Part shown: positions 23,081 to 48,608 of the stretch, one piece after another
Layout: every line of letters starts with the position of its first letter
Position numbering within the stretch: the stretch's first letter is position 1
Assembly (NCBI GenBank): GCA_030615855.1
Contig: JAUWYL010000007.1
Coordinates: 1-50,939, forward strand
From: a bacterium
GTDB lineage: Bacteria > UBP18 > UBA7526
DNA: 50,939 nucleotides
Reading direction: 5' to 3'
The notes under the pieces: model-generated
Seen by the model: only the letters and a program-made list of their open reading frames with translations
Database searches by the model: none
What the model was told of the DNA's origin: nothing
Program-made: the position numbers and the translations under genes

Positions 23081-23094
23081 TTTATCTCCTAATA

Positions 23095-23335
23095 AACATA
23101 GTTGACAAGTTAATAAGTCAATAAGTTGATAAGTGAATAAAAAAAACATTTGATTAGGGTTAAGGTTAGGTTGTTAGTTTGATTGTTAGGTTAGGTAGTT
23201 GGTCTTTAAACACCTAACTCTTACCTAACTATCAAACCCCTGTCTGCCGACAGGCAGGCACTACTTTGCCCTAACCCAACTACCAACGACTTTGGACAAT
23301 CTTGTCAACTTGTTCCCTTGTCAACTTGTTAACTG
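23095..23335. repeat. Nested hairpin repeat region with a CCTGTCTGCCGACAGGCAGG palindrome
   Basis: Outer gttgacaa / ttgtcaac arms, inner gttag / ctaac arms, palindrome at 23239-23258. Confidence 0.75.
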
Positions 23336-24121: not shown

Positions 24122-24142
24122 ACTTTCTCTCCTTCATTCAAG

Positions 24143-24306
24143 GGTTAGCAATAAAAAGTTACTAACGGTTACTAATCCCGCCTGCCGGGCAGGATAGAGG
24201 TTACTAACAGTTACTAATGGTTACCGACACAATTACTAAAATTACTAAAAAGCAACTGATAGTAACCTATAGTAACAGCGAAGCGTAGTAACTGATAGTA
24301 ACTGTT
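24143..24306. repeat. Decamer hairpin element (GGTTACTAAC / GTAAC family)
   Basis: gttactaacg-gttactaat ... gatagtaact repeats with an inserted cccgcctgccgggcagg palindrome. Confidence 0.75.
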
Positions 24307-24335
24307 TTACGCCTTACTTCACCCTTGTCTTTCAG

Positions 24336-26551: not shown

Positions 26552-26682
26552 GCTTGTCTCCTCAATGGTTAAGATAAGTCTCACTACCGTTCGACAATCT
26601 TCACAGATTAGCACAGATTAAAAGAAACAGATGATCACAGATGGAATACATAGATAACCGCAGATATCTATCTCCATCTTTT

Positions 26683-29301
26683 TTATTTTGATACAGGGGG
26701 AATGACCGGTTTTTTATTTTTAACTTCTTTATAAGTTATCATAGGTGGATTATCTACCGGGCATATAAAAGAACAGATCATACAGCTTAAACATTTTTCT
26801 TCATCCTGAACCGGTCTTCGTTTTTCACTATCCCATTCAAGAGATTGTCCCCCGGCATCCTGACAGACAATATAACACTGGCCGCATCCGATGCAACGGT
26901 CAAGGTCAAATTCTGCAATTCCCTGACGTGTTAAATCAAAGGCATCCGTGGGGTGAAGATGAGGCAACGCCTTTCCCACAATATCCTTCACTCCCTTATA
27001 CCCCTTTTCCTCCATAAAATCAGAAAGGCCCTCGCACATATCCTCAACAATCCTGTGGCCATAATGGATAACACCGGTTGTCATCTGAACAACTGAGGCC
27101 CCGCATAACAGGTATTCAACCGCGTCAATCCAGGTCTCTATCCCCCCGCATCCTACAAGAGGTAAATTTAATTCAGAAGACTGGGCCATTTCGGCAATAA
27201 ACCTCAAACCAATTGGTTTAACTGCCGGACCTGAATATCCGCTTATTGCGCCCTTCCCAGCAACATTGGGCTTGGGGACATAATCGTCCAGTCCAATCTC
27301 AGTAAGGGCACGAACAGTGTTAATAGCGGTAATACCATCTGCACCACCTTTTTTGGCAAATAATGCCGGTTCAGTCATGTCGGTAATGTTGGGAGTCATT
27401 TTTGCCAGTATCGGTATTTTAACCACATTTCTTACTGCAGCAGTAAACCTTTCTATAAGATCGAATGCCTGCCCTACTTTCATACCTGAACCTTCCACCG
27501 TCATGTGGGGGCAGGAAAAATTCAGCTCAAGCATATCTGACCCAATCCCTTCAGCCATCTTTGCCAGTTCAACCCATTCATACTCTGAAAAGCCCATAAG
27601 ACTTGCTATAACAACATGTTTGGGCCAATGTTTCTTCAGGTATTTAATATCCCGAAGATTATCTTTAAGCGGTCTATCCGTTATCTGTTCAACGTTTTGA
27701 AGACCGACTAATTTTTTGTCTTCATAATTGTACTTTGCCATTCTGGGAGCTGGATGTATTATTTTTATTTTATCAAAGCCAAGGGTTTTATAGGCGACAC
27801 CGCCGAATCCATGGTCAAACGCCCTGCCAATCATCTCCCCGGTATTGGATACCGGTGAAGAAGATAATAAAAATGGTGTGGGAAACCTGATCCCGCACAT
27901 CTCAATACTTAGATCTTTCGTTCTATCCATTTTTATCCTTCTGGTAAGCTGAATATTTTCTTTACCCAAACTCCTGATTATCTTCTTTGCCGCTTCCTTT
28001 CCATCCGCTAAGGCCTCTACGGCAAGTGCCGATCCCCTGACTATATCTCCACCGGCAAAAATCTTTTTATCCGCAGTGGATATGCCATCCCTTTTCGTGG
28101 TTATCAGGTTATTCCTTTTATACTTGATTTTTGAAGATAAATCCCTGATTCCCGCCTCCGGACCGGAACCAATAGCCATAACAACCGTATTGACTTCGAG
28201 ATCGAATTCCGTACCTGATACTGGCCGGGCATTTGATGGGATAAATAAATTTGGTTTGACCCATTCCGTTTCGTTCCCTTTTACTCCCGCAACTCGGCCT
28301 CTCTCCCCAATGATTTCCGTTACCTGGCATTGTGGTTTAATAATAACGAAATTATCTCTTGCCATTTCGAGGTCATCTTTAGCAGCAGGTATCTCTGCTA
28401 AACTTTCCAGACATATACAATATACCTTTTTTGCGCCAAGTCCTTTACAGGTATTGGCAACATCCATTGCTACCGAACCGCCTCCAATAATAGCCACGTT
28501 CTTATTTTTAACCATTCGGGTAATCTTACCTTTGTTTCCATTACGGACGAATTCTAAAAACTCGGTAGCCGTGGTAACGTTTTTTAAATCAGAACCCGGT
28601 ATCTTAATTTTATAAGGGTTCCATAAACCGGTAGCTATAAATACCGCCTTAAATCCTTTCTTAATAAGATTATCAACACCCTTAGCTCCTATTCGAGATT
28701 TACATTTAATTTTAACGCCAAGCTTTTTGACATCTTCTAACTCTCTATCAAGAAATTCACTGTTCAACCTGAACTCAGGAACACCATATCTAAGAACACC
28801 GCCTGGTTTCTCTTTTGATTCAAACACAGTGACATTAAAGCCTGCTTTGGCAAGTTCGGCAGCACAGGATAATCCTGCAGGCCCGGAACCCACAATGGCA
28901 ACTTTCTGTTTTCTCTTGGCACCTTTTCTTAGGGGATTAAAACCTGTCTCCCAGGCGTATTCCACCAGGAATCTCTGCAATTTTCCTATCTCAATGGGTC
29001 GGTCAATTTCAGTTGCACTGCAGGCCTTTTGACACAGTTTTTCATTGGGACAGACAATCCCGCATATACCTCCTAAAATATTATTTTCTTTAATAGTCCT
29101 TACCGCCCCCTTAATATCTCTTAATCGCAATTTTCTGATAAAAGTCCCCGGGTCAGTATCAGCAGGACATTCTTGACTACAGGGAGCATCATAACATAAC
29201 AAACATCTTGAAGCTTCAATAATAGCCTGACTAAGGTCAAAACCCTTCTTCATATCTAAAATGTTTTCTACCCGGTTACTTTTTCTTTTGGCAGATTTCA
29301 T
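26683..29301 (-). CDS. Dihydropyrimidine dehydrogenase, fused PreT (FAD/Fe-S) and PreA (FMN/Fe-S)
   Basis: EASRCLLCYDAPC, GSGPAG, GGGSVAMD, then ELNFSCPH, AINTV and two C-terminal CxxCxxCxxxC clusters. Confidence 0.88.
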   Translation of the reverse strand: MKSAKRKSNRVENILDMKKGFDLSQAIIEASRCLLCYDAPCSQECPADTDPGTFIRKLRLRDIKGAVRTIKENNILGGICGIVCPNEKLCQKACSATEIDRPIEIGKLQRFLVEYAWETGFNPLRKGAKRKQKVAIVGSGPAGLSCAAELAKAGFNVTVFESKEKPGGVLRYGVPEFRLNSEFLDRELEDVKKLGVKIKCKSRIGAKGVDNLIKKGFKAVFIATGLWNPYKIKIPGSDLKNVTTATEFLEFVRNGNKGKITRMVKNKNVAIIGGGSVAMDVANTCKGLGAKKVYCICLESLAEIPAAKDDLEMARDNFVIIKPQCQVTEIIGERGRVAGVKGNETEWVKPNLFIPSNARPVSGTEFDLEVNTVVMAIGSGPEAGIRDLSSKIKYKRNNLITTKRDGISTADKKIFAGGDIVRGSALAVEALADGKEAAKKIIRSLGKENIQLTRRIKMDRTKDLSIEMCGIRFPTPFLLSSSPVSNTGEMIGRAFDHGFGGVAYKTLGFDKIKIIHPAPRMAKYNYEDKKLVGLQNVEQITDRPLKDNLRDIKYLKKHWPKHVVIASLMGFSEYEWVELAKMAEGIGSDMLELNFSCPHMTVEGSGMKVGQAFDLIERFTAAVRNVVKIPILAKMTPNITDMTEPALFAKKGGADGITAINTVRALTEIGLDDYVPKPNVAGKGAISGYSGPAVKPIGLRFIAEMAQSSELNLPLVGCGGIETWIDAVEYLLCGASVVQMTTGVIHYGHRIVEDMCEGLSDFMEEKGYKGVKDIVGKALPHLHPTDAFDLTRQGIAEFDLDRCIGCGQCYIVCQDAGGQSLEWDSEKRRPVQDEEKCLSCMICSFICPVDNPPMITYKEVKNKKPVIPPVSK

Positions 29302-29321
29302 TTTATACCTCCTTTGAATCT

Positions 29322-29390
29322 GGATATCAGGGTATCAGAGTATCAGGGAATCAGGGAATTCCCGATCACCCGATGACCCGATAACCCAAT
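29322..29390. repeat. Octamer hairpin (TATCAGGG / CCCGATA family)
   Basis: atatcagg-gtatcaga-gtatcagg-gaatcagg-gaatt | cccgatca-cccgatga-cccgataa-cccaatca. Confidence 0.85.
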
Positions 29391-30733
29391 CACTCTACTT
29401 CCTGATCTGCGATCTTCAATACCTCATCAAGGACTGCTATTCCTTCGTCTACTTGTTCTTCGGTAATAATCAAGGGAGGGGCAACACAGAGGTGGTCATA
29501 CCAACTAACGATGTATACCCCCTTTTTTAATGCTTCCCCTGCTATCTTGTCCGTCATAATGGGCTTGGTAGTAAACTTATCGGCTTTCACATTAAAGGGT
29601 TCTTTCGTTTTTCTATTCTCTACTAGTTCCAATGCCCAAAAATGGCCGATTCCTCTTACGTCGCCGATGCATTGGTGATGCTCTTTCAATTCAGATAACT
29701 TCTCCTCTAAGTGCCTGCTGACCCTCTTGGGAAGCCCAGTCGCCATGAGTCTCTTGTACTCTGCTACTGCTGCCGGGATGGCGGCTAAGACCAAAGGATG
29801 CATGGCATAGGTATGGCCATGACACATAACTTTATCTTCAAAATGATCCTTAATCTTCTTGGTAGTTACCGTAATTCCCACCGGAGCATAGGCCGCTGAA
29901 CATCCCTTTGCGCTAGTCAATATATCAGGCTTAACATTCCAATTATCTAAAGCCCAGGCCGGGCCTGTTCTATACCAGCCACTCATTACTTCATCGGCAA
30001 TGAGCAATATCCCATTCTCATCGCAGATCTCTCTTAATCGAGGAAGATATTCTTTGGGAGGAACTAATTTACCATTGGTACCCACTACCGGCTCTATAAA
30101 GACCGCTGCTACATTCCCCTCTTCCTTAATCATATAGTCCAGATATTCTACACACTGGATATTACAATCAGGATATTTCAATCCAAAGGGACAGCGATAA
30201 CAGTAGACATCCGGAGCAAAGACGATGCCCGGTACAGTACATCTTGCTCTTTCGGCATAGAATCGTCTGGTATCTCCGGTCAAGGAGGCACCTACCGCGG
30301 TAGCCCCATGATAAGAATGATATCTGGAGATGACCTTAAAGTTAGGGAACATATATTGCCTGGTTATCTTCATTGCCGCTTCATTGGCCTCTGTCCCAGA
30401 TGTAGAATAGAAAATCTGATCTAAACCCTTGGGCAATACAGTGAGTAAGGCCGCGGTTGCTTTTGCCCTTATTTCACAGGCAAAGCCGGGACTTATATAA
30501 GGCATCTTCTCTGCTTGTTTGATGATGGCCTCAATGATTGCCTTATTTTTATGGCCCAGATTGGAACACATTAACTGAGACGAAAAATCAAGGATGGGCC
30601 GATCCTTCTCATCATAGATATAAACCCCTTCTGCATCCTTGATAAATAAGGGTGTCTTCCATCCTTCCTGTCGTCTCCAGGTACCATAGGTATGCTCTGT
30701 TAATGCCTTAACCATCTCCTCTGTTTTGGTCAT
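29390..30733 (-). CDS. Class III PLP aminotransferase, likely beta-alanine / omega-amino-acid transaminase
   Basis: SGTEANE, SYHG, IADEVMSG, TSAKG (PLP Lys), HGHTY; located inside the pyrimidine degradation genes. Confidence 0.8.
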   Translation of the reverse strand: MTKTEEMVKALTEHTYGTWRRQEGWKTPLFIKDAEGVYIYDEKDRPILDFSSQLMCSNLGHKNKAIIEAIIKQAEKMPYISPGFACEIRAKATAALLTVLPKGLDQIFYSTSGTEANEAAMKITRQYMFPNFKVISRYHSYHGATAVGASLTGDTRRFYAERARCTVPGIVFAPDVYCYRCPFGLKYPDCNIQCVEYLDYMIKEEGNVAAVFIEPVVGTNGKLVPPKEYLPRLREICDENGILLIADEVMSGWYRTGPAWALDNWNVKPDILTSAKGCSAAYAPVGITVTTKKIKDHFEDKVMCHGHTYAMHPLVLAAIPAAVAEYKRLMATGLPKRVSRHLEEKLSELKEHHQCIGDVRGIGHFWALELVENRKTKEPFNVKADKFTTKPIMTDKIAGEALKKGVYIVSWYDHLCVAPPLIITEEQVDEGIAVLDEVLKIADQEVE

Positions 30734-30960
30734 CTTGAGTCTCCTCCCTCCTCATAACCTGATTTTGCAAATTTGCCGTTTATCGTCTATCGGTTGCGGT
30801 TAGATTGATGCGTTAAAATATGAAATATGAAATATCAAATATTAAAATGACATATTAAAATCCAAAAATGTTTTAAATTTCACATTTTGCATTGTCATTT
30901 TAATTTTTACACTTTGATTTTTGATATAGCACTATCCTTCAACGTATACCGAAATCCCTG

Positions 30961-32337
30961 TTATATTCTGCCGTAAGCCTTTCTGGGAACAAATTGACCC
31001 CAGCCTTTTTCTCCCACGAACTTGCCATTCTTAGCGATAATCCTTCCTCGGGAGATGGTCATTGCTGGATAGCCAGTTAACTTCCATCCAGTATAGGGGT
31101 TCCAGTCGCAGGTGGACTGTAACCTCTTTGGCGATATAGTCACCCTCTTCTTAGGGTCGAAGACCACCAGATCGGCATCGGAACCGATGGCAATGGTCCC
31201 CTTCCTAGGGTAGAGACCGAAGATCTTGGCACTATTGGTAGAGGTAACTGCTACTAGATTATTGACGCTCCATCCTCGCTTCACACAAGCGGTATACATC
31301 ATGGGCAGAAAGGTCTCCAGTCCCGGCATGCCGAAGGGGATCTTGGCGAAGACCCCTTTCCAGAGGGCCTTCTGCTTGATATTGAAGGTGCAAGTATCGG
31401 TCCCCATATTGAGTATCGTCCCTTCCTCCATCCCCTTCCAGAGGGCCAGGCAATCGGATCTCTTCCTTATGGGTGGGCAGGTGGCATACCAATGGCCATT
31501 CTTCTTCTTGAATAGATCATCGGTTAAGAAGAGGTACTGGGGGCAGGTCTCGGCATAGACGTCTACTCCTCTCTTCTTTCCTTCCCTTACTGCTTCTAAG
31601 CCCTCCTTAGTTGTCATATGGACGATGTAGAGAGAACCATCTGCTGCTTCTGCCAAGGTGATGGCCCTCTGGATCGCTTCTCCTTCAGTGAAGTTCGGCC
31701 TGGTAAGGGCGTGGTTATAGGTAGCGAATTTCTTCTCTTTTAAATATTTTGCCGTCAGGGTTTCGGTGACATAGACATTCTCTGCGTGAACCCCGATCCT
31801 TCCTCCGTATCTCTTGGCCATAACTAAGGCCTCATAGAGGTCGGCATCGTCGCTCATCCATCCCTCTCCCCGATAGATCATGAACATTTTAAAAGAAGGA
31901 ATGCCGCTCTTGATGACTTCTGGTAACTCTCTCTGGGTCCTCTTATTCTTCCAGTCAGTAATTCCCACATGGAGGGAATAATCAATGGCCACCTTAGAAT
32001 CTGCTAATTTCCTCCTGGCCCTGATAGTCTCCTTCATGCTCGTTCCCTTTGCCTGGATGGCGAAGTCAATGATGGTGGTGATCCCACCTGCGGCAGCAGA
32101 GGCCGTTTCCTCAAAGAAGTCGGCACTTACCGTTCCGCAGAAAGGAAGCTCGCAGTGGACATGGGGGTCAATGGTCCCGGGCAGGACATACTTCCCCCGG
32201 GCATCGATGACCTGGGTTCCCCTCTTTGCTCTCAGGTTCTTACCAATAGCTACGATCTTCCCTCCTCTGATACCAACATCCGCCCGATAGGTCTCGGAGG
32301 CTGTTATCACCTTCCCATTCTTAATTACAAGATCCAT
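30961..32337 (-). CDS. hydA: Dihydropyrimidinase (D-hydantoinase)
   Basis: PGTIDPHVH, SFKMFMIY, VHAEN, YIVHM, ETCPQYL, KGTIAIGSDADLVVFDP. Confidence 0.9.
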   Translation of the reverse strand: MDLVIKNGKVITASETYRADVGIRGGKIVAIGKNLRAKRGTQVIDARGKYVLPGTIDPHVHCELPFCGTVSADFFEETASAAAGGITTIIDFAIQAKGTSMKETIRARRKLADSKVAIDYSLHVGITDWKNKRTQRELPEVIKSGIPSFKMFMIYRGEGWMSDDADLYEALVMAKRYGGRIGVHAENVYVTETLTAKYLKEKKFATYNHALTRPNFTEGEAIQRAITLAEAADGSLYIVHMTTKEGLEAVREGKKRGVDVYAETCPQYLFLTDDLFKKKNGHWYATCPPIRKRSDCLALWKGMEEGTILNMGTDTCTFNIKQKALWKGVFAKIPFGMPGLETFLPMMYTACVKRGWSVNNLVAVTSTNSAKIFGLYPRKGTIAIGSDADLVVFDPKKRVTISPKRLQSTCDWNPYTGWKLTGYPAMTISRGRIIAKNGKFVGEKGWGQFVPRKAYGRI

Positions 32338-32434
32338 CTACTTACCTCCTCTTACACACGAATTTTGGAATTCGGATGCCACAAATTATCTGTGATCTGT
32401 GAGAATCTGTCTTAGATCTGTGGAAATCTGTGTT

Positions 32435-33343
32435 CTAGGGAAGGAGCTTTGTCAGGTCTCCATAGGTCTCTGGTCTCCGGTCTCTATAGAACTGCCAGGC
32501 CTGTCTTATCTCCTCGATCTCATCCAGGTCGAGGTCCGCCACTACTATCTCGTCTTTATACTCACCTGCCTGGGCAATAATCTTTCCCTTGGGACTGCAG
32601 AAGTAACTGGAGCCATAGAACCTCCCCGTATTCCAGGGCTTCTCTGTCCCTACCCTATTTATTGCTCCTACAAAGTAGCCATTAGCCACCGCATGGGCCG
32701 GCTGCTCTAACTCCCAGAGATATTTGGATACTCCGGCAGTAGTGGCTGAAGGATTGAACATAATCTGGCATCCATGCAATCCCAGGATCCTGGCTCCATC
32801 CGGGAAGTGCCTATCGTAACAGATGTAGGGAGCAACCTTAGCATAGGCGGTCTGGAAGACAGGATAGTCTGTATTCCCGGGCTTGAAGTAATACTTCTCG
32901 TAGAACCCGGGATGGACGTAGGGAATATGCATCTTTCGGGTAGTCCCCAGTAGTTTTCCATCGGCATCGATGACCGCTGCCGAGTTGTAATAGACCCCGG
33001 CCATGGCCCTTTCATAGATAGGAACCACGATGACCATGGAGTACTTCTTGGCCACTTTTGCGATCTCTCTTGTGGTTGGCCCGGGGATGGGCTCTGCGCT
33101 ATAGTACCATCTCATATGATGCTCGGCACAAAAGTAGGGACCGTTGAAGAGTTCCTGATAGCATAAGACCTGGACTCCTTTTTTGGCCGCCTTTTCCGTC
33201 ATCTTGATATGCTTCTTTAGCATGGCCTCTTTAATCTTATCGACCTCTTTCTTGATCGCCTTCTCGCTCATCTTGGAAGTATCCTTGGTAGGTGGAATGA
33301 CATTCTTCGCCTGAATCAGTCCTCCTCTTACTACTTTTGCCAT
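32435..33343 (-). CDS. Beta-ureidopropionase-like carbon-nitrogen hydrolase (nitrilase family)
   Basis: E-K-C triad in YQELF, RKMHIP and ICYDRHF; FYRDRRPETY. Confidence 0.85.
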   Translation of the reverse strand: MAKVVRGGLIQAKNVIPPTKDTSKMSEKAIKKEVDKIKEAMLKKHIKMTEKAAKKGVQVLCYQELFNGPYFCAEHHMRWYYSAEPIPGPTTREIAKVAKKYSMVIVVPIYERAMAGVYYNSAAVIDADGKLLGTTRKMHIPYVHPGFYEKYYFKPGNTDYPVFQTAYAKVAPYICYDRHFPDGARILGLHGCQIMFNPSATTAGVSKYLWELEQPAHAVANGYFVGAINRVGTEKPWNTGRFYGSSYFCSPKGKIIAQAGEYKDEIVVADLDLDEIEEIRQAWQFYRDRRPETYGDLTKLLP

Positions 33344-33355
33344 AATTACCTCCTT

Positions 33356-35188
33356 TTATACTAAATCTAGTTCTTTTAGTCTCTCCTTGGTAGGAATTCC
33401 CTTCTCGTCCCAGCCGCGGAGTCTATAGTATTCTGGGAGCATCTTGTTGAGATCAGGAACTTTTCCCTTCGCCTTGCCATCTGGCTTGGCGGTCAAGAGG
33501 CGTTTGGGTAGGATATCGTCCTTGCCAGAGATTCCCAGTTTTATGTCATAGAGTCTCTTAAGATTGAATAACCTCTCTCCAACTTTTAAGAGTTCCTCCT
33601 TATTCATCTCAAAACCAGTAACCCTATTCACCCACCTAGCGATCTGGGAGGGCTCTGCCCTTCCCATCAAAAACTTACAGAGCCCCAAGGGATTATAGAC
33701 GCTTAAGAAGTTCTGCAGGTTATAGACGATCTCCGGCTTATCCTCTTCTCTGAACTGATCTGGTGGCTCTATATATCCCAAGTCTTTTATTTTCAATCCT
33801 CTATCGAGGAAATAGGTCAAACCTTCCAAGTGGCAGGCGCCTCTTACTGCCGTAGCATAGGAGAGGGCCATGGAGAAATGTCCCCTTGGATCGTGAGCCG
33901 GATAGTCAAGACCCTTTGTCTGGGAAACGAAATCCTCTGTTCTTTTGCCAATCTTCTCTGCTGCTTTTACTGGTCCATCTGCTAAGTACTCTCCACCAAA
34001 CCCCTCCTTCTTGGCAATCTGATTTATGAGAGCAATCATGGCCTTAGAATCTCCCCACTTTATCTCTAAGCCTCCAATATCATCTTTCGTTATTTTTCCT
34101 TTTTCATAGCACTCCATGGCAAAAGCCAAAGTATTTCCGGTAGAGATGGTATCCAATCCGAATCTATTGCACAATTCATTTACATAGGCCAGGAGTTCCA
34201 GGTCATCATTGAGACAGTTTGCTCCCAGCATTCCCACTGTTTCATACTCTGGATAGTGGCCATAGAATTTTCCATACTTGCCGTCACCTTTGACAATTTT
34301 AGCACAGCCTATGGGACAAGCATAACAATGATAATGTCTTACCCAGATTGTCTCCCTCATCCTCTGCCCAGATATTCCCTTGATCCCTTCCGCCCAGGAG
34401 CCGAGTTGCCAGTTCTTTATCGGCAGGTCGGCGAAGGCCTCCACTGCTACTGCGCCACCGGAGGTACCGAATTCGCTCAATCCCTCTGCCTTCTCTTTTA
34501 TTACTGGAATCTCTTTCTTCAATAGTTCTCTTAAGGCCTCCCGATCCTTAACCTCTGGTCTTTGTTTCCCCCTCACCACGATGGCCTTCAGGTTCTTGGA
34601 ACCCATTACCGCTCCCGGTCCACCCCGGGCAGCATTCCGGGCATTTATTCCATCAAAGACAATACCTGCTATTCTGGATAGGTTCTCTCCTGCCTGACCG
34701 ATTGCAGCCACAAGCGTTCTCTCATCCGTCTCTTTCTTTAATAGTTCACTAGTTATAAAGGTGTCTTTTCCCCAAACATTTCCCGCATCTTTAATCTTAC
34801 AGGCCCCATCATCAATCCAGAGATAGACCGGTTTACTTGATTTCCCTTTAATCATTATTCCATCATATCCCGTGCACTTGAACTGGGCGGGCCAGTGGCC
34901 TCCTACTGTGGACTCATTCCATATTCCAGTTAGAGGACTTTTGCTACAGACGCTTAACTTGCAGGCCGTAGGAACCATAGTCCCGGTTAAGAGGCCGGCC
35001 ATAAAGATCAAGGGATTAGCAGGATCAAAAGGATCAAGACTCAGATCTGCCTCTTCAGATAATATCTTGGCTGCTAAGCCGCTTCCCATGAAGTATTTCT
35101 TAACATCCTCCTCACTTACTTCCTTTTCAGATATCTTCTGAGCGGTGAGATCGACTTCCAGTATCTTTCCCTGATAACCATAGCTCAT
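33356..35188 (-). CDS. aor: Tungsten-type aldehyde:ferredoxin oxidoreductase
   Basis: KSPLTG, AARGGPGAVMGSKNLKAI, CYACPIGC, PEYET, GLDTIS, RGACH, YYRLRGWD. Start moved to ATG 35188. Confidence 0.9.
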   Translation of the reverse strand: MSYGYQGKILEVDLTAQKISEKEVSEEDVKKYFMGSGLAAKILSEEADLSLDPFDPANPLIFMAGLLTGTMVPTACKLSVCSKSPLTGIWNESTVGGHWPAQFKCTGYDGIMIKGKSSKPVYLWIDDGACKIKDAGNVWGKDTFITSELLKKETDERTLVAAIGQAGENLSRIAGIVFDGINARNAARGGPGAVMGSKNLKAIVVRGKQRPEVKDREALRELLKKEIPVIKEKAEGLSEFGTSGGAVAVEAFADLPIKNWQLGSWAEGIKGISGQRMRETIWVRHYHCYACPIGCAKIVKGDGKYGKFYGHYPEYETVGMLGANCLNDDLELLAYVNELCNRFGLDTISTGNTLAFAMECYEKGKITKDDIGGLEIKWGDSKAMIALINQIAKKEGFGGEYLADGPVKAAEKIGKRTEDFVSQTKGLDYPAHDPRGHFSMALSYATAVRGACHLEGLTYFLDRGLKIKDLGYIEPPDQFREEDKPEIVYNLQNFLSVYNPLGLCKFLMGRAEPSQIARWVNRVTGFEMNKEELLKVGERLFNLKRLYDIKLGISGKDDILPKRLLTAKPDGKAKGKVPDLNKMLPEYYRLRGWDEKGIPTKERLKELDLV

Positions 35189-35206
35189 CTTTATCAACCT
35201 CTTTAT

Positions 35207-35390
35207 GCACAGATTAGCACTGATTGCAACACGGATAGACACAGATGACTAAATGCAAAAATTAAAGTGCAAAATGACAAATCAAAATTTAAAATTTTGG
35301 ATTTCAATACGTAGTCTTGATTTTTGATATTTGATTTTTAAATTTAAACTAATCCGTGTGAATCCGCAATCAATCCGTATGAATCCGTGT
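35207..35390. mobile_element. Composite hairpin element (AT-rich heptamer hairpin nested in a CACGGAT hairpin)
   Basis: 35230-35358 is a close reverse complement of 44276-44410. Confidence 0.75.
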
Positions 35391-36578
35391 TTAGATGACT
35401 CTTTCTTTCCTCAACTCCTTAATCTTTTTCGGGCTATACCTGAGATACTTCTTCAGAATCTCCTTTGTATGCTCTCCCAGCAATGGCGGACGGCCAGGAA
35501 TTTCGTCTGAGAATCCAGCCATCTTCAGAGGAGTTCCAGCCATCTTGATCCTTCCCGCTACAGGGTGTTTGATCTCCTGGATCATGTTGCGAAATAGAAT
35601 CTGGGGGTGACGCACCATCCTCTCCATATTATTCACCGGGCCACAGGGAATACCCCGTTCATTGAAGATAGTTAAAAGTTCCTTAACTGTTCTCTTCTTC
35701 GTCCATCTCTCAATCAGGGATTTAAGAATCCTTTCATTCTTCACTCTCTTTTTATTATTCGTAAACCTGGGATCTTTGAGGAAGTTCTTTCTTCCCATTG
35801 CCTGGCAGAAATTATGCCAGAGTTTCTCATTGCCGATGGCGATTACCATATAGCCATCCTTGGCTCTAAACATATCAAAGGGTGTTAGAGAAGGGTGTCG
35901 CGATCCAATGGGCGTGGGTGATTTTCCGGTAGCAAAGTACCTTATGATGGCATTCTCTAAAACAGAGGCTACGGAGTCCACCATGGCAACATCGATCCGG
36001 GAACCCTTCCCTGTCTGTTCTCGATTATAGAGAGCGATCATTATTCCATAAGCGGTGAACATCCCGGCTAAGATATCAGCGATGGAGGTTCCCACCCTGG
36101 TAGGAGGGCCATCGGGAAAGCCGGTGATGGACATTATTCCTCCTACTGCCTGGGCAACGATGTCGTATCCCGCCATGCGGGATATGGGCCCGGTCTGGCC
36201 ATAGCCAGAGGTTGAGGCATAGATTACCCTGGGGTTTATCTTCTTTATATCTTGATAGCCAAAGCCCAGTTTATCCATGGTCCCTGGACGAAAGTTCTCC
36301 AAGATAACATCCACCTTCTCTATTAATCTTCTTACAATTTCCTTTCCTTCCTCATGCTTCAGGTTTAAAGTGATGGATTTCTTCCCCCGATTGAGGCTCA
36401 TATAGTAGCCGCTTTCTCCTTTAATGAAGGGGCCAAAGAAGCGGGCATCGTCACCAGTTCTGGGTCTCTCAACCTTTATCACCTCTGCTCCCATATCACA
36501 GAGCATCATGGCGCAGTAGGGTCCGGCTAACACCCTGGTAAAGTCTAAGACCCTAATCCCTTTTAATGGCTTCTTCAT
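35391..36578 (-). CDS. Family III (CaiB/BaiF/Frc) CoA-transferase
   Basis: LDFTRVLAGP, DMGAEVIKVE, LNRGKKSI, ENFRPG, GYDIVAQA, catalytic Asp in IADILAG. Start moved to 36578. Confidence 0.92.
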   Translation of the reverse strand: MKKPLKGIRVLDFTRVLAGPYCAMMLCDMGAEVIKVERPRTGDDARFFGPFIKGESGYYMSLNRGKKSITLNLKHEEGKEIVRRLIEKVDVILENFRPGTMDKLGFGYQDIKKINPRVIYASTSGYGQTGPISRMAGYDIVAQAVGGIMSITGFPDGPPTRVGTSIADILAGMFTAYGIMIALYNREQTGKGSRIDVAMVDSVASVLENAIIRYFATGKSPTPIGSRHPSLTPFDMFRAKDGYMVIAIGNEKLWHNFCQAMGRKNFLKDPRFTNNKKRVKNERILKSLIERWTKKRTVKELLTIFNERGIPCGPVNNMERMVRHPQILFRNMIQEIKHPVAGRIKMAGTPLKMAGFSDEIPGRPPLLGEHTKEILKKYLRYSPKKIKELRKERVI

Positions 36579-36655
36579 CCTTCCCCCTTTTATATTCGTG
36601 TTGATTCGTGTTTCCATCTCTCCCGTTTTCGCTTTACAGTTCGCGTTGATTCGCG

Positions 36656-37138
36656 TTATTCTATGATTGCCAAGACATCTCCAGTATTGACCATATCTCC
36701 CTTGGCCACCCGGATCTCCTTTATTCTTCCCTCCTTGGGACTAAAGACCTCACTCTCCATTTTCATGGCCTCTAAGATAAGAATGACCTCATCCTTGTTC
36801 ACTCTTTCTCCCTCACTGGCCTCAACGCTTATTATCTGGCCACTCATGGGTGAGATAATGGTTCCCTCTTCTTTTTCTTCTAATCTCTCTATCTTTCGTC
36901 GGACGGCAAGCTTCTCTGCCTCCTCTATCTCTAAACGATAGAGCTCCTGATTGACAGAGATTAGGGTAGGAAGGCCATTCTCCTCCTCCAAAGAGGATAT
37001 CTCATAGGAGCGATTATTGACCAGAAGGGAGTCCTTGTTCAAATCGACATGATATGGTCTGCCGTTCACGACGATCATCCCCGGTTCCTTTACCTCTACC
37101 CGATAGTGATCGTTACCAACAGCGACCCGGAATCTCAT
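36656..37138 (-). CDS. Biotin carboxyl carrier protein (with an N-terminal BT-like domain)
   Basis: EAMKME biotinylation motif; ATG overlaps the biotin carboxylase stop. Confidence 0.88.
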   Translation of the reverse strand: MRFRVAVGNDHYRVEVKEPGMIVVNGRPYHVDLNKDSLLVNNRSYEISSLEEENGLPTLISVNQELYRLEIEEAEKLAVRRKIERLEEKEEGTIISPMSGQIISVEASEGERVNKDEVILILEAMKMESEVFSPKEGRIKEIRVAKGDMVNTGDVLAIIE

Positions 37139-38649
37139 ATCTTCTTCAATCCTCTCCGCCACTTGCTTTCGGCGAACCCTCTTCTCCAGAGATTTTCTCT
37201 CTTTTTCTCCCTCTTTAGAGGGGTTCCCTTACGGTTCTGATAGGCGAGGAGACAGCCGGTAATGACCGCTATCTTCTCTGAGGCCCGATTATTCACCTTT
37301 AACCTCTTAAGTAACCTATGCCTCTCAATGAAGGAAAGGCTTATCTTTCCCCTTTGAAAATCCCTTTCACAGAGAATGGCCTTATGTAAGGGAACGGTAG
37401 TCTTCACCCCTTCGATAATGAATTCATTCAAGGCCGCTCCCATCCTTCTTATCACCTCTTCCCTATCTTTCCCCCAGACAGTGAGTTTGGCAATCAGGGT
37501 ATCGTAGTATAAAGGAATGGTATACCCGGAATAGATAGAGCTATCCACCCTCACTCCCAGTCCTCCTGGGAATCTCAGGTTTCTGATCGTTCCTGGAGAG
37601 GGAGCAAAGTCATTCAAGGGATCTTCAACATTTATTCGGCACTCCATAGCACATCCATCTAAGGAAATATCTTTCTGCCTGAAACGTAACCTCTCACCAG
37701 TGGCAAGCCTTATCTGGGCTTTAACCAGATCAATCCCGGTTACTCTCTCAGTTACCGAATGCTCCACCTGAATCCGAGCATTTATCTCAATGAAGTAGAA
37801 GTTCTTTCTCTCATCTAAGATAAATTCTACCGTCCCAGCATTAGTATATTCCACGGCTTTTGCGACCTTTACCGCTGCCTCTCCCAATCTATTTCTCAAT
37901 TTCTCATCGACTACTGGAGAGGGCGTCTCCTCTAAAAGTTTCTGATACCTTCTCTGTATCGTGCAGTCCCTCTCCCCAAGATGAATCATATTATTATGCT
38001 CATCGGCCAATATCTGGACCTCGATATGCCTGGGATTCCTGATATACTTCTCAATGTAAAGGGCGGGGTCATCGAAGGAGACTCGAGCCTCTAACCTGGC
38101 CACCTTCAAGAGAGAAGGAAGTTCTTTTAATCTATTAACCCGGCGTAGTCCTCGTCCTCCCCCACCATAGGCGGCCTTGATTATTATCGGAAGCCCTAAT
38201 CTTCGGGCCAAATCCCGGGCCTCCTTATTACTCTTTATCGGTTCTTTTGAACCCGGTATTATAGGAACTCCAGCCTCCTCCACAATCTTTCTGGCCAAGA
38301 GCTTATTACCCACTCTTTCCATAGTGCGGGAATCTGGGCCGACGAATTTTATTCTATTCTTCTCACATAATTTAACAAACTTTGGATTCTCTGCCAAGAA
38401 GCCATATCCCGGATGAACGGCCTGGGCCCCACTTGACTTAGCGATCTCGATGATCTTTCTCATATTGAGGTAGCTCTCCTTGGGCTGAGGTCCACCCAAA
38501 AAATAGGCCTCGTGCGCCAGCTTGACGTAAAGGCTCGCTCTATCAACTGAGGAGTAGACAGCAACCGTCTGGATGCCCAGTTCCCGGCAGGCACGAATGA
38601 TCCTTACCGCAATCTCTCCCCGATTGGCGATCAGTATCTTCTTGAACAT
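37135..38649 (-). CDS. accC: Biotin carboxylase
   Basis: KILIANRGEIA, HPGYGFLAEN, GGGGRG, RDCTIQRRYQK, EINARIQVEH. Confidence 0.93.
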   Translation of the reverse strand: MFKKILIANRGEIAVRIIRACRELGIQTVAVYSSVDRASLYVKLAHEAYFLGGPQPKESYLNMRKIIEIAKSSGAQAVHPGYGFLAENPKFVKLCEKNRIKFVGPDSRTMERVGNKLLARKIVEEAGVPIIPGSKEPIKSNKEARDLARRLGLPIIIKAAYGGGGRGLRRVNRLKELPSLLKVARLEARVSFDDPALYIEKYIRNPRHIEVQILADEHNNMIHLGERDCTIQRRYQKLLEETPSPVVDEKLRNRLGEAAVKVAKAVEYTNAGTVEFILDERKNFYFIEINARIQVEHSVTERVTGIDLVKAQIRLATGERLRFRQKDISLDGCAMECRINVEDPLNDFAPSPGTIRNLRFPGGLGVRVDSSIYSGYTIPLYYDTLIAKLTVWGKDREEVIRRMGAALNEFIIEGVKTTVPLHKAILCERDFQRGKISLSFIERHRLLKRLKVNNRASEKIAVITGCLLAYQNRKGTPLKREKKRENLWRRGFAESKWRRGLKKI

Positions 38650-38711
38650 TTTTCTCTCACCTAGAGGTTTACGGTGTACGGTTAACGGTAAACGGTAAAC
38701 GATCCTTCTTG

Positions 38712-39848
38712 TTATCCAAGAATAGCAAGTAGGATTCCAGCGGCGATAGCAGAACCGATCACTCCCGCCACATTGGGGCCCATAGCATGCATTAATAAGA
38801 AGTTACTGGGATCCTCCCTCTGTCCCTCCTTCTGTACCACCCGGGCCGCCATGGGGACGGCAGAAACTCCTGCCGCACCGATCAGAGGATTGATAGGTTC
38901 TTTGGAGAAGAAGGACATAAGCTTACCAAAAAGCACCCCGCTTGCCGTGGCAATGGAGAAGGCGATCACTCCTAAGACCAGTATCTTCAGGGTAACCAAA
39001 GTGAGGAAGGTCTCTCCCCTCATAGTGGCTCCGATGCATATCCCTAAGAATATAGTGGTGATATTTATGATCTCGTTCTCTGCCGTACGGGCCAGCCTCT
39101 TCACCACCCCGCTCTCCCTCATCAAGTTTCCCAGCATGAACATCCCGATTAAAGGAGAGGCCTTGGGGACTAATAGGATACATAGGATGGCAACGATTAA
39201 GGGAAAGAGTATTTTCTCCCTTCTTGAGACCGGACGCAGTTGCTTCATAATAATCTTTCTCTCCTCTTTAGTAGTAAGAAGCCTCATGATAGGGGGCTGG
39301 ATGAGGGGGACCAGGGCCATATAGGAGTAGGCAGCAATAGCGACCGGTCCCATCAAATGGGGAGCGAGGATAGAGGTAGTGAAGATGGCGGTTGGACCAT
39401 CTGCACCACCAATGATTCCTATGGAGCCTGCTTCAGGGAGGGTAAAGCCTAATCCAATGGCGCCCAAGAGAGTGGCGAAGATCCCGAACTGGGCCGCAGC
39501 CCCCAAGAGAAAGGTCTTGGGATGAGCCAGAAGGGGGCCGAAATCGGTCATGGCTCCGATACCCAAGAAGATTAAAGGAGGGAAAATGCCATATTTTATT
39601 CCGAAGTAGAGGTAGTAGAGCATCCCTCCTTCCTCCATTATTCCGGATAGAGGGATATTGGCCAATATGCTCCCGAAACCGATAGGAATGAGAAGTAATG
39701 GTTCATACTTCTTGGCGATGGCTAAGTAGATTAATAGGCATCCAACCCCAATCATGATTATATTCTGATAAGTGAGGTTGGTATATCCAATATTTTCTAA
39801 GAGGCTAGCAAATGCCCTTCCCAGATTCTGGATTTGAGAGAAAAACAT
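38712..39848 (-). CDS. Na+-translocating decarboxylase beta subunit (OadB/MmdB/GcdB family)
   Basis: [57 protein letters not shown]. Confidence 0.95.
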
Positions 39849-40231
39849 TACTTTCTTCCTAAAGGAGTAAGGATCATGAGAAGGTTCCCAATATCCACCT
39901 TCTCTCCCTTCTTCACCTTGATCTCCTTAACCACCCCTTTAGCAGGGGTAATGATGGCGTTCTCCATCTTCATGGCCTCCAAGATGATGACCGTCTCTCC
40001 TGCCTTTACCTTATCCCCTACCTGCTTCTTTATCTCTATGATGAGCCCCGGGATGGGAGAGGTGATATCAATTTCCTTCTTAGTAACGCGGGGGGCTTGA
40101 GGAATGAGGAGCTTCTTAATGCTTACCTCTACCCCAGGCCTCTTGGAAGGAATAGGAGCCTGAGCAGAGGTCTCTTCCTCTATCTCCACCTCAAATACCT
40201 TTCCATTTACCTTAATCCTAAACTTCCTCAT
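39848..40231 (-). CDS. Biotin carrier subunit of the Na+-pumping decarboxylase (MmdC/GcdC-like)
   Basis: [18 protein letters not shown]-terminus and EAMKMEN. Confidence 0.88.
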
Positions 40232-40515
40232 CTAAGAACCCTTCTTCTAATGAGGGAGGTTCTCATCTGCTCTTCCCTCTTCCTCCTCGCCCATCTGGAT
40301 GGCTTATAGTGAACCTCGCTCTCTGGTGATTCTAAGGCGACTAAGGCAGCGGATAAGGCGGCAATGGTCTCCTTCTCCCTTCCTGGATAGCGGGTAACCT
40401 TCTTCTTAGAAAGCCGGGCTAACAGTCGCATAATAATGACCAGGAGAAACAAGGAAGCGAAGACGATGAGCATCCCAACGATGACAATGGATATCCCGCT
40501 CAGCCACTTCTCCAT
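40228..40515 (-). CDS. OadG/MmdD-family membrane anchor subunit
   Basis: GMLIVFASLFLLV TM helix, IAALSAAL motif, position in the operon. Confidence 0.75.
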   Translation of the reverse strand: MEKWLSGISIVIVGMLIVFASLFLLVIIMRLLARLSKKKVTRYPGREKETIAALSAALVALESPESEVHYKPSRWARRKREEQMRTSLIRRRVLR

Positions 40516-40597
40516 ATCACCCTCGCTTCGCTCGGAATTAGTTAATAAGTTGACAAGTTGATAAGTTTACTTGTTAACTTCTGGTTACTGGTTACTT

Positions 40598-42241
40598 CTA
40601 TAGTGGTATATTCCCATGCTTCTTCTGGGGTCTCGATTCTCCCTTTGAGGAAAACATCTCTAAGGCCTTGATGAGTTGGGGTCTGGTCTCATAGGGTTCG
40701 ATGACCTTATCCACATATCCCCGGCGGGCAGCAACATAGGGATTGGCGAACTTCTTTGTATACTCCGCTATCTTCTTTGCCAGGACCTCTTGAGGCTTCT
40801 TGCTTGAGGCGATTTCCTTTTTATATACGATCTCTGCTGCTCCCTGGGGACCCATGACCGCGATCTCTGCAGTGGGCCAAGCATAGACGGCATCCGCCCC
40901 TAAGTGCCGGGAGCACATCCCGATATATGCCCCTCCATATGCCTTTCTGAGGATGATAGTTAATTTGGGTACTGTGGCCTCAGAGTAGGCATATAAGAGC
41001 TTTGCCCCATGCCTAATCACTCCCCCATGCTCCTGGTCTGTTCCTGGCAAGTATCCCGGGACATCGACAAAGGTAACCAGAGGGATATTAAAAGAGTCAC
41101 AGAATCTGACAAACCTGGCTGCTTTATCAGAACTATTGACATCCAAGACCCCTGCTAAGACCTTGGGCTGATTGGCAATAATGCCTACGGAGTAACCGTT
41201 CAATCTTCCAAAGCCGATGACCATATTGGGGGCGAAATAGGACTGTATCTCAAAGAACTCGGAAGCATCGACCACCTTCTCAATGACATCCCGCACATCA
41301 TAGGGCTTCTTGGGGATGGTGGGGACCAGATTGGCTAAGGTCTCATCCATCCGGTTAGGATCATCACCCAAGTCAATGATGGCCGGCTCCTCCAGGTTAT
41401 TGGAGGGGATGTAACTTAAGAGTTTCTTCAGAAGATTAAAGGCTTCCTCCTCAGATTCGCAGGCAAAGTGGGCCACCCCGGATAATTGGTTATGGGCCAT
41501 GGCCCCTCCTAATTCCTCCTGACTAACATCCTCTCCCGTGACGGTCTTTACCACATCCGGGCCAGTGATGAACATCCTGCTAATTCCCTTCACCATGAAG
41601 GTGAAGTCGGTGATGGCGGGGGAATAGACCGCTCCTCCCGCACAGGGACCCAAGATGACTGAGATCTGAGGGATTACCCCAGAGGCAAGAGTATTCCTAT
41701 AGAATATATCTCCATAACCTTTCAGGGAATCCACCCCTTCCTGAATCCGAGCCCCTCCAGAGTCATTTATCCCAATTAGAGGAACGCCCATCTTCATGGC
41801 CAGATCCATGACCTTGCATATCTTCTGGGCATGCATCTCACCCAGACTTCCCCCAGCAATGGTGAAGTCCTGGGCAAAGAGACAGACCCTCCTTCCATCC
41901 ATGCGACCATAACCCGTGACCACTCCCTCACCAGGAAGGGCTTTCTTATCCATCCCTAAATCTGTTGCCCGGTGTCTAACGAAGATATCCGTCTCCTCAA
42001 AGCTTCCGTCATCCAACAAAAGGTCGATCCTCTCTCTTGCCATAAGCTTTCCTTTCTTATGCTGGGCTTCGATCCTCTCCTTCCCACCCCCTAAGAAGAT
42101 CTTCTCTCTCTTCTCCTTTAGTTCGGCCATCTTCTGGGCTATGGTAGCCTTGGGTATCACCTCTACCCCAGGAGGCCTCTTCACCACTTCTTTCTTCAAC
42201 TTCTTCTTCAGAATCCCTTTGATCTTTTTAAAGATTGGCAT
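40598..42241 (-). CDS. Acyl-CoA carboxyltransferase (MmdA/PccB-like alpha subunit)
   Basis: [45 protein letters not shown]. Start moved to ATG 42241. Confidence 0.92.
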
Positions 42242-42341
42242 CTCTTTCCTCCTTTTTGACACGGATTTTTTTGCATTGCTTACTGCTTAGGCAAAAACAC
42301 CGCGGATTGTCACGGATTCATCCGTTTCTTTAAATCCGTGC

Positions 42342-43286: not shown

Positions 43287-43307
43287 CTTTCTAAACCTCC
43301 TTATAAT

Positions 43308-43391
43308 CACAGATTAGCACAGATTAAAGGATACAGATTATCACAGATAAATCCGTGTGTATCAGTGTTGTTATCCGTGTCTATCCGTGTT
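43308..43391. repeat. CACAGAT/ATCCGTG-family hairpin element
   Basis: cacagatt units facing atccgtgt units; further copies at about 10205-10245, 26600-26670, 32355-32432, 42259-42350, 45695-45757 and 46955-47030. Confidence 0.85.
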
Positions 43392-44258: not shown

Positions 44259-44275
44259 AATTTAACCTCCTTATG

Positions 44276-48515: not shown

Positions 48516-48551
48516 TCGGTCTCTGCCCATTTTCATTGAACAATATTGTTG

Positions 48552-48606: not shown

Positions 48607-48608
48607 AT

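Follow-up and report, generated by a model that had tools for sequence, protein, structure and literature searches.

An aldehyde:ferredoxin oxidoreductase and a family III CoA-transferase as a candidate ending of pyrimidine breakdown, with a putative Na+-pump decarboxylase, in a UBP18 bacterium

The window, meaning the whole 50,939-nt stretch analysed here, is one entire contig (JAUWYL010000007.1; C6 of genome G000) of a 1.375-Mb metagenome-assembled genome (MAG) that is 93.6% complete and comprises 45 contigs. It carries the genes of reductive pyrimidine degradation (Pyd) side by side with genes for a tungsten-type aldehyde:ferredoxin oxidoreductase (AOR), a family III CoA-transferase and a biotin-dependent block that includes OadB, the beta subunit of Na+-translocating carboxybiotin decarboxylases. 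In strict anaerobes, the completion of pyrimidine breakdown and the energy gained from it are poorly known, and the endings described run through MmsA or a semialdehyde reductase; the question raised by this locus is whether its genes form another ending. The relevant passages of PMC7332683 describe bacterial Pyd clusters that end in MSDH or in PydE, as well as a ferredoxin-dependent dihydropyrimidine dehydrogenase (DPD). A full-text search, with supplements and subscription journals outside its scope, turned up no paper that connects an AOR or a tungsten enzyme with the catabolism of pyrimidine, beta-alanine or malonate semialdehyde, and in the 2025 review PMC12096430 the terms 'pyrimidine', 'uracil', 'malon' and 'beta-alanine' occur 0 times. 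On balance, the comparison of genomes points to a probable ending of pyrimidine breakdown by AOR and CoA-transferase via (methyl)malonate, to which this genome would add decarboxylation by a Na+ pump. The pathway is a known one, and the comparison suggests an undescribed variant of it with a third ending besides MmsA and semialdehyde reductase. An initial annotation of the window had proposed all of these genes as a single energy-conserving unit, an interpretation that is partly supported by the results below.

AOR, CoA-transferase and MmsA in pyrimidine loci

Profile searches with Pfam and NCBIfam on 22 open reading frames (ORFs) found every gene of the initial list in its place, from the DPD to the acyl-CoA carboxyltransferase (CT), together with glutamate dehydrogenase (GDH). 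Two genes had been overlooked, those of the biotin carboxylase AccC (37135-38649) and of a second biotin carboxyl carrier protein (BCCP2, 36656-37162), and their presence changes the reading of the block that had been called a decarboxylase. As in the known Pyd pathway, DPD, dihydropyrimidinase, beta-ureidopropionase and a candidate beta-alanine aminotransferase are clustered. The difference lies in the ending: known clusters end in MmsA (MSDH) or in the malonic semialdehyde reductase PydD-PydE, whereas the window genome has no MmsA, no reductase was seen in the cluster, and AOR and CoA-transferase stand in that place. Such a route would give a free acid by ferredoxin-linked oxidation and a thioester only later.

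MmsA was defined as a protein passing TIGR01722 (cut-off 448.5 bits). No protein of the whole window genome passed it (best match 23.8 bits), so that the absence noted initially holds genome-wide. MmsA was likewise found in 0/6 genomes of the family, which comprises the window genome and five relatives, G001 to G005 (best 293 bits, in G004), and in 0/5 other genomes with an AOR in a Pyd locus (G061-G065; best 242 bits). The comparison set consisted of 12 genomes taken from long DPD-anchored loci with no AOR within 10 kb of the Pyd locus, and MmsA passed the cut-off in 11 of them. The MmsA ORF was within the DPD locus in L099, L102, L112, L147, L163 and L164, and in L109, L123 and L132 it lay a short way beyond the edge. 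MmsA and Pyd-embedded AOR were complementary (MmsA in 0/11 versus 11/12 genomes), with counts inflated by kinship, as six of the genomes belong to one family and several of the twelve are labelled Spirochaetota. This distribution is the pattern that a replacement of MmsA by AOR would predict.

The recurrence of AOR in Pyd loci was examined by scans that each gave the best 80 loci or fewer, so that all counts are among the loci listed, and all genomes scanned were MAGs. The first AOR-anchored scan returned mostly generic AORs without Pyd neighbours, and the scans were then anchored on DPD and on the AOR of locus L157. Neighbours were stop-to-stop ORFs labelled by their best BLASTP matches to the window proteins (E <=1e-8, query cover >=35%). 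The DPD-anchored scan gave 79 loci, and AOR stood among Pyd genes in at least 10 of them, namely 2 from the family and 8 of the 77 non-family loci (L130, L131, L137, L152, L155, L156, L157 and L159). Five non-family loci checked by Pfam showed the order beta-ureidopropionase-AOR or dihydropyrimidinase-AOR-beta-ureidopropionase, with uracil/xanthine or cytosine/uracil permeases nearby. The scan anchored on the L157 AOR showed Pyd genes beside AOR in 12 of 80 loci and added L262, L265, L266, L267 and L326. Altogether, Pyd-embedded AOR was found in at least 19 genomes (6 of the family and 13 others, some of the latter labelled Thermodesulfobacteriota, Gemmatimonadota or Pseudomonadota). The initial annotation had suggested looking for AOR, a CaiB-type transferase and OadB together beside preA/hydA; AOR, usually with a family III transferase, does recur there (at least 13 non-family genomes), and OadB was within reach in none of the non-family loci listed.

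Different genes followed AOR in the non-family loci. The commonest downstream partner was methylmalonyl-CoA mutase/epimerase, and in L130 and L131 the mutase was beside the transferase/AOR. Locus L268 combined a b-type transferase (defined below) with corrinoid adenosyltransferase, mutase, MeaB, epimerase and AOR; GDH and a permease of the nucleobase type were close by, and no Pyd gene was within reach of the locus. The gene after the Pyd-linked AOR of L137 (L137:19897-21678) codes for a flavoprotein of the fumarate reductase/succinate dehydrogenase type (TfrA-like, below cut-off), possibly another downstream variant.

Within the family, a search of 61 genomes found the AOR orthologue in all five relatives (three genera) at 85-88% identity, directly upstream of the beta-ureidopropionase gene in 5/5 as far as contigs reach. 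G002, G003 and G004 showed the order CT, carrier of about 90 aa, AccC, BCCP2, CoA-transferase and AOR, followed on the longer contigs of G002 and G003 by beta-ureidopropionase and other Pyd genes. CT, a small carrier, AccC and a second carrier were directly upstream of transferase and AOR in all six family genomes. G001 and G005 carry, between a b-type transferase and AOR, the large and B12-binding subunits of methylmalonyl-CoA mutase, MeaB and a glyoxalase-type epimerase; no other family genome has the mutase (2/6). The gene arrangement, kept in 5/5 relatives as far as contigs reach and recurring in unrelated MAGs, is more than chance. In G003 (L092:11204-16718), dihydropyrimidinase, aminotransferase and the split DPD were 58%, 33% and 41%/51% identical to the window proteins in an array otherwise 80-95% identical, which is gene displacement in place with the pathway content retained. 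Three extra small genes, absent from the window, lie between beta-ureidopropionase and dihydropyrimidinase in G002 (L096:3391-4824); one is unannotated, one thioredoxin-like and one YbjQ-like.

The fused DPD of the window has the domains Fer4_20, Pyr_redox_2, DHO_dh and Fer4_21 in one ORF, which thus joins a PreT-like part (Fe-S, FAD/NAD(P)H) to a PreA-like part (FMN, 2x4Fe-4S). The fusion was 93-95% identical in G001 and G002, and DPD was encoded by two separate genes in G003 and every non-family locus. The closest solved relative of the aminotransferase was taurine:2-oxoglutarate aminotransferase 6JIX (1.9e-78), and another class III type (33% identity) was at the same position in G001 and G003. 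The CN-hydrolase, whose gene starts 12 nt past the AOR stop, had Drosophila beta-alanine synthase 2VHH and human beta-ureidopropionase 6FTQ/8PT4 as top solved relatives, with N-carbamoylputrescine amidase scoring similarly.

The best solved relatives of the window AOR were 9MQX and 1AOR, and the alignment with 1AOR was full-length. C306, C309, C313 and the Cys of PLGLCKF, Y333/E334 and H471 aligned with C288, C291, C295, C494, Y312/E313 and H448 of 1AOR, which we take to be the four cluster ligands, the catalytic Tyr-Glu pair and the catalytic His. The enzyme thus shares fold family, ligands and catalytic residues with Pyrococcus furiosus AOR/FOR and differs in belonging to a separate bacterial subfamily embedded in Pyd operons. 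The first tree held 99 AORs (ORFs >=450 aa aligning over >=540 query residues, truncated copies such as those of L093 and L156 left out), and 12 Pyd-linked rows and one other formed a set with SH-aLRT 99. The second tree held 65 rows (rows carried over at >=43.5% identity, paralogues from the genome itself and 29 added rows at >=44%), and all 17 Pyd-linked AORs fell into one 26-row clade with SH-aLRT 100, which also contains the L268 AOR; the Pyd label requires two changes on this tree. The Pyd-linked AORs are set apart from 86 others by 24 clade-specific positions. These include Y327 and H329, which fall in a loop that is longer by two residues and directly precedes the catalytic Tyr-Glu, together with K315, T442, Y477, Y490, W537 and K590. 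At least five further AOR-family genes are present in the genome (contigs C2, C8 and C10; L001, L002, L004, L005 and L006), and the four paralogues that could be placed on the tree were all outside the Pyd-linked clade. For FOR, according to PMC12096430, the proposed substrate is glutaric semialdehyde, which is a carboxy-aldehyde.

Of the non-family AORs in the relatives sample, that of G042 was the closest (52% identity, without Pyd neighbours). Sister AORs of the Pyd-linked clade lie in a conserved cluster (L094:5032-14883, in G042, and L270:391-10250) with a LacI regulator, a family I CoA-transferase, a short-chain dehydrogenase, a thiolase and a sugar-type ABC transporter.

The family III CoA-transferase had E. 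coli YfdE 4HL6 (3.2e-109) and succinate-hydroxymethylglutarate CoA-transferase 9BR6 (3.2e-103) as best solved relatives over its full length, enzymes that use oxalate or C5-C6 dicarboxylates. It differs from them in scoring below the cut-offs of its best NCBIfam matches, the CoA:oxalate and succinate-glutarate CoA-transferases, and therefore represents a distinct subfamily. Each of the six family genomes has one PF02515 gene, always at this locus. Two types, a (as in the window) and b, 51-54% identical, alternate within the family; b, the type of G001 and G005, is always accompanied by mutase there and also occurs in the non-family loci L130, L131, L152 and L157. In L326 (Gemmatimonadota label), with the order beta-ureidopropionase, dihydropyrimidinase, aminotransferase, PreT, PreA and AOR, a malonyl-CoA synthase of the MatB type (NF005702, 568 bits, cut-off 558) adjoins about 1.1 kb downstream of AOR on the same strand. 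The half of the initial proposal that concerns AOR and CoA-transferase thus draws its support from comparison: AOR appears in the usual place of MmsA, and an apparent dicarboxylate CoA-activating enzyme travels with it.

The biotin block and the putative Na+ pump

In the direction of transcription, the block reads CT, OadG-like protein, 127-aa carrier (BCCP1), OadB, AccC and 168-aa carrier (BCCP2), the last two of them placed between OadB and the CoA-transferase. The first four genes have the canonical order mmdA-D-C-B, as in 32 of the 80 OadB-anchored loci listed, those with MmdA alongside; the epimerase was alongside in 15 of the 80. The OadB gene, present once in the genome, codes for a protein identical to Salmonella OadB 6IVA at residues 203, 229, 373, 377, 382 and 389, positions where Asp, Tyr, Asn, Gly, Ser and Arg are conserved and whose roles we take from the oxaloacetate decarboxylase literature. 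BCCP1 has an EAMKME motif and an N-terminal segment (opening with 10 protein letters not shown here), and was 57-64% identical to the carrier of about 90 aa that occupies this position in the relatives, with flanking genes at 83-95%; BCCP2 was 80-93% identical in the relatives. From these residues, the Na+-pump module looks catalytically intact. Among solved structures, CT came closest to 1VRG, to 1X0U, to beta chains of propionyl-CoA carboxylase, to a Thermotoga homologue and to 12S transcarboxylase. As partners, pyruvate carboxylase, the alpha subunit of oxaloacetate decarboxylase and 5S transcarboxylase were rejected, PF02436 being found in 0/6 family genomes and no PYC_OADA domain in the window genome.

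The OadB insertion is real and not an assembly artefact. A contig of 5479 nt from run X1, possibly the source sample, spans 36145-41623 without mismatch, the AccC/OadB junction was bridged by contigs of X2 and X3, and OadB-BCCP1-OadG was bridged by a contig of X5. Another contig of X5 passes straight from 38649 to 39960 and represents the OadB-less form. The runs bridging the OadB junctions belong to three studies, and their contigs were used for junctions only. GC and GC3 of OadG, BCCP1 and OadB do not stand out from those of their neighbours, so composition is no evidence for or against horizontal transfer.

Two known systems resemble the block. Veillonella and Propionigenium have the Na+-translocating methylmalonyl-CoA decarboxylase MmdABCD(E), and the window shares its order of CT, small membrane subunit, biotin carrier and OadB, as well as the key residues of OadB. 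The window CT was 60-66% identical to CTs of mmd operons with mutase and epimerase, whereas the window genome has neither, AccC and a second BCCP follow, pyrimidine genes adjoin, the CT and delta subunit fall below model cut-offs, and none of the relatives has the pump subunits. Malonate is used by MatB/MatA or by the biotin-dependent Mad system of Malonomonas, which has an OadB-type Na+ pump. With Mad, the proposed route would share the logic from malonate to malonyl thioester to acetyl thioester and CO2, but the thioester would be formed on CoA by the family III transferase and not on acyl carrier protein, and malonate would derive from uracil. On the MadB model TIGR03136, the window OadB scored only 194.6 bits (cut-off 596.9). 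In the OadB-anchored loci L195 and L220 (a Dethiosulfatibacter aminovorans contig and a Nitrospinaceae-labelled MAG), a homologue of the family III CoA-transferase (48-53% identity) lies beside mmdA-carrier-oadB; a transferase-decarboxylase pairing therefore exists outside pyrimidine clusters.

Genes elsewhere in the small genome of this uncultured bacterium would fit a Na+ economy. RnfA and RnfE are present, and the K subunit of a V/A-ATPase is a 156-aa double hairpin (L339:1237-1707, contig C20 of G000; the same type in G001 and G002) that matched the E. hirae Na+-ATPase 2BL2 at 6.7e-37 and H+ types at about 1e-7. It keeps the LPGTQG, Q and E positions, which are presumably Na+ ligands. A Na+ pump would be in keeping with the apparent Na+-type V-ATPase and Rnf. 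A search for [FeFe] hydrogenases, the one type covered, found none in the genome.

Proposed route and alternatives

The route is our inference from established pathway chemistry, as are all of its substrates, the donor of CoA, the flux direction and the ion. DPD would reduce uracil or thymine with NAD(P)H, dihydropyrimidinase would open the ring, and beta-ureidopropionase would decarbamoylate the product to beta-alanine or 3-aminoisobutyrate, which the class III aminotransferase would convert to malonate or methylmalonate semialdehyde. GDH would recycle 2-oxoglutarate, return NAD(P)H and free ammonia. The semialdehyde would then be oxidised by the tungsten-type AOR, in place of a CoA-acylating MmsA, to the free dicarboxylate with reduction of ferredoxin, which Rnf could convert into an ion gradient. 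The family III transferase would move CoA from acetyl-CoA (or propionyl-CoA) onto the acid; these donors are expected for the a-type, and succinyl-CoA for the b-type. In this genome, CT would pass the carboxyl group of (methyl)malonyl-CoA to BCCP1, and OadB with OadG would decarboxylate the carboxybiotin and export Na+, giving back the acetyl- or propionyl-CoA used by the transferase; the Na+-type V/A-ATPase and Rnf would use or add to the gradient. Methylmalonyl-CoA of the thymine branch would be decarboxylated here, and in two relatives and several other lineages would be turned into succinyl-CoA by epimerase and B12 mutase. With AccC and BCCP2, the same CT would double as the only acetyl-CoA carboxylase of the cell.

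Several results weigh against this route. The initial annotation had made the Na+-translocating decarboxylase part of a conserved unit, and this did not hold: OadB and OadG were in 0/5 relatives (completeness 53-85%), were missing in G002, G003 and G004, where the orthologous loci are contiguous, and were in 0/79 DPD-anchored loci apart from the window genome. OadB was also absent from 3/5 other AOR-Pyd genomes tested, and no CT, AccC or OadB was in any non-family Pyd-AOR locus listed, many of these loci being short. CT scored 891 bits on TIGR01117 mmdA (cut-off 998.8), and the OadG-like protein 33.2 bits on TIGR01195, just under the cut-off of 36.05. CT is the only carboxyltransferase of the genome and AccC its only PF02785 match, and three ketoacyl synthases and two FabD-type acyltransferases are present; CT, AccC and BCCP2 are therefore the only candidate acetyl-CoA carboxylase, and CT and AccC need no catabolic explanation. 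The route leaves G002, G003 and G004, which have neither pump nor mutase, unexplained as regards the way from uracil to acetyl-CoA; malonyl-CoA might go into lipids there, be handled by an unfound decarboxylase or, more speculatively, be used by reversal of AccC. As to AOR, these are broad-range enzymes, 8 of the 26 clade members have a different setting, such as among thiolase, SDR and ABC-transporter genes, and a CoA-acylating EutE-type aldehyde dehydrogenase (NF011927, 661 bits) lies near acetate kinase on contig C23. Synteny within the family is weak evidence because the six genomes are close kin, and the window genome is itself a MAG of 93.6% completeness.

A first alternative is that AOR and transferase extend pyrimidine catabolism and the biotin block is separate, with CT, AccC and BCCP2 as a housekeeping acetyl-/propionyl-CoA carboxylase, OadG-BCCP1-OadB as a horizontally acquired methylmalonyl-CoA decarboxylase for another fermentation, and their position next to the Pyd genes as a quirk of a family with small genomes. 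The single CT and single biotin carboxylase beside FabD and ketoacyl synthases, the non-family Pyd-AOR loci listed without biotin enzymes, and the confinement of OadB to this one family member favour such a separation. So do the nearest OadB homologues, at most 69% identical among one-genome-per-species contigs (matches listed) and lying in ordinary mmdA-carrier-mmdB operons, often with mutase and epimerase. It is rendered rather improbable, though it is the most serious of the alternatives, by the finding of two different modules consuming (methyl)malonyl-CoA at this one locus (OadG/OadB here, mutase, MeaB and epimerase in G001 and G005), by the lack of a mutase that could feed the classical succinate-to-propionate route in this genome, and by the need of the transferase for an acyl-CoA donor, which a decarboxylase would regenerate.

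A second alternative has no malonate intermediate at all: the semialdehyde would decarboxylate, spontaneously or enzymatically, to acetaldehyde or propionaldehyde, AOR would oxidise these or scavenge aldehydes, and transferase, mutase and carboxylase would handle propionate and succinate (propionyl-CoA to methylmalonyl-CoA to succinyl-CoA). The broad range of AORs, the general AOR 1AOR among the best solved relatives and the clade members in non-Pyd contexts would suit it, and AccC, CT, epimerase and mutase in G001 and G005 make up the classical propionyl-CoA route. We consider it unlikely, since most non-family loci have no carboxylase nearby, the closest solved relatives of the transferase are dicarboxylate enzymes, and a malonyl-CoA synthase adjoins the Pyd-AOR cluster of L326. 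Acetaldehyde, moreover, has its own enzymes on C23, where a DeoC-like aldolase accompanies acetate kinase and the EutE-type dehydrogenase in what is by its gene content a separate route for acetaldehyde derived from deoxyribose.

A third possibility is that carboxybiotin from catabolic malonyl-CoA drives AccC in reverse, making ATP from ADP and Pi, as the main route in the OadB-less relatives and in parallel here. All six family genomes keep CT, the small BCCP, AccC and the second BCCP upstream of transferase and AOR, with two carriers where one would do for a carboxylase, and G002, G003 and G004 have no OadB or mutase to dispose of malonyl-CoA. Against this, the need for fatty-acid synthesis fully explains AccC, and general thermodynamics would place the reaction close to equilibrium and, at the usual ATP/ADP ratios, on the unfavourable side; we know of no physiological precedent, and hold the reversal to be very unlikely. 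Its extension would also be a long shot, namely that decarboxylation of uracil-derived malonyl-CoA conserves energy in two interchangeable ways on one CT, by the OadB Na+ pump in this species and by reversed biotin carboxylase giving substrate-level ATP in the OadB-less relatives. Lastly, a biosynthetic direction, in which acetyl-CoA is carboxylated, CoA removed and malonate reduced by AOR to the semialdehyde and on to beta-alanine, is hardly credible even with AccC present and with AORs able to reduce acids given low-potential donors (PMC9295118), as the Pyd genes already supply beta-alanine, the cluster is accompanied by nucleoside phosphorylases here and by uracil permeases in other lineages, and the complementarity with MmsA points to catabolism.

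The nucleoside-catabolism array and its significance

The region makes up the base-degrading half of a nucleoside-catabolism array of 27 kb that runs in one direction, with 22 ORFs arranged head to tail on the minus strand between about 46.9 kb and 19.7 kb (Table 1). In the direction of transcription, LL-diaminopimelate aminotransferase, GDH and a split transketolase precede the biotin block, which is followed by CoA-transferase, AOR, beta-ureidopropionase, dihydropyrimidinase, class III aminotransferase and fused PreT-PreA, and then by phosphopentomutase, adenosine deaminase, purine and pyrimidine nucleoside phosphorylases, a xylose-isomerase-like TIM-barrel protein and a DnaQ-type exonuclease. 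The nucleoside-cleavage genes have the same order in G002, and the split transketolase is kept in G002 and G003. A GDH homologue was also within the Pyd loci L099, L101, L102, L112, L163 and L164 and beside the AOR module of L268. Promoters and terminators predicted over 26000-45900 were about as numerous as in shuffled sequence (37 versus 29.1+-5.1 and 17 versus 18.9+-4.5).

Table 1. Predicted features of the array in the window, with the profile matches on which they are based
Feature	Coordinates	Strand	Profile or domain evidence
Phosphopentomutase, adenosine deaminase, purine and pyrimidine nucleoside phosphorylases	21752..26614	-	NF003766, TIGR01430, NF006054, NF004747, each above cut-off
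Fused PreT-PreA DPD, NAD(P)H type, 872 aa	26683..29301	-	NF006183 PreA, 508 bits, cut-off 335
Class III (omega-amino acid) aminotransferase, candidate beta-alanine/3-aminoisobutyrate:2-oxoglutarate transaminase	29390..30733	-	PF00202
Dihydropyrimidinase	30961..32337	-	TIGR02033, 478 bits, cut-off 393
Beta-ureidopropionase, nitrilase superfamily (CN-hydrolase)	32435..33343	-	PF00795
Tungsten-type AOR, candidate (methyl)malonate-semialdehyde oxidoreductase	33356..35242	-	AFOR_N and AFOR_C
Family III CoA-transferase (a-type), candidate acyl-CoA:(methyl)malonate CoA-transferase	35391..36617	-	PF02515, 471 bits, profile positions 1-366 of 366
BCCP2, 168 aa	36656..37162	-	PF00364; EAMKME biotinylation motif
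Biotin carboxylase AccC (ATP-grasp)	37135..38649	-	TIGR00514, 644 bits, cut-off 626.5
Na+-translocating carboxybiotin decarboxylase beta subunit (OadB/MmdB)	38712..39848	-	TIGR01109, 536 bits, cut-off 191
BCCP1, MmdC-like, 127 aa	39848..40231	-	PF00364
OadG/MmdD-like small membrane subunit, 95 aa	40228..40515	-	TIGR01195
CT, MmdA/PccB/12S type	40598..42262	-	PF01039, 690 bits
Split transketolase (N and C halves), pentose branch of nucleoside use	42342..44258	-	Transketolase_N; then Transket_pyr and Transketolase_C
GDH, candidate for 2-oxoglutarate regeneration and second NH3 release	44411..45661	-	ELFV_dehydrog domains

The xylose-isomerase-like gene (AP_endonuc_2; 20624-21607), 87% identical in G002, ends the nucleoside array, and a pentose or deoxypentose isomerase/epimerase is one possibility for its product. 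Directly downstream of the nucleoside genes, an array resembling type IV pilus or type II secretion systems (849-18515, minus strand) contains a PilM-like protein, several pseudopilins, GspF/PilC, two GspE/PilB ATPases and a PilT ATPase, and the exonuclease gene (19666-20316) lies between the two arrays; it is only a thought that these genes might serve feeding on extracellular DNA by uptake. A gene of the HI0074-family nucleotidyltransferase substrate-binding (HEPN-like) type and a small unannotated ORF are found at 48609-49335, within the low-GC stretch 48001-50000 (GC 0.363), the GC minimum of the window, and are possibly a toxin-antitoxin-like pair or a mobile insertion.

The third ending suggested here would yield low-potential electrons and free (methyl)malonate through a tungsten AOR, followed by CoA activation by a transferase or, in one locus, a malonyl-CoA synthase. 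If this reading is true, one AOR subfamily would gain a physiological substrate and two uncharacterised types of family III CoA-transferase would gain candidate functions. If the two-way coupling held as well, pyrimidines would serve as a genuine fermentable source of energy, by a kind of phosphorylation not known before. The family would present a natural experiment in which the same locus is combined with a Na+ pump, with a B12 mutase cassette or with neither, and the finding would bear on how small-genome sediment bacteria live off nucleic-acid debris.

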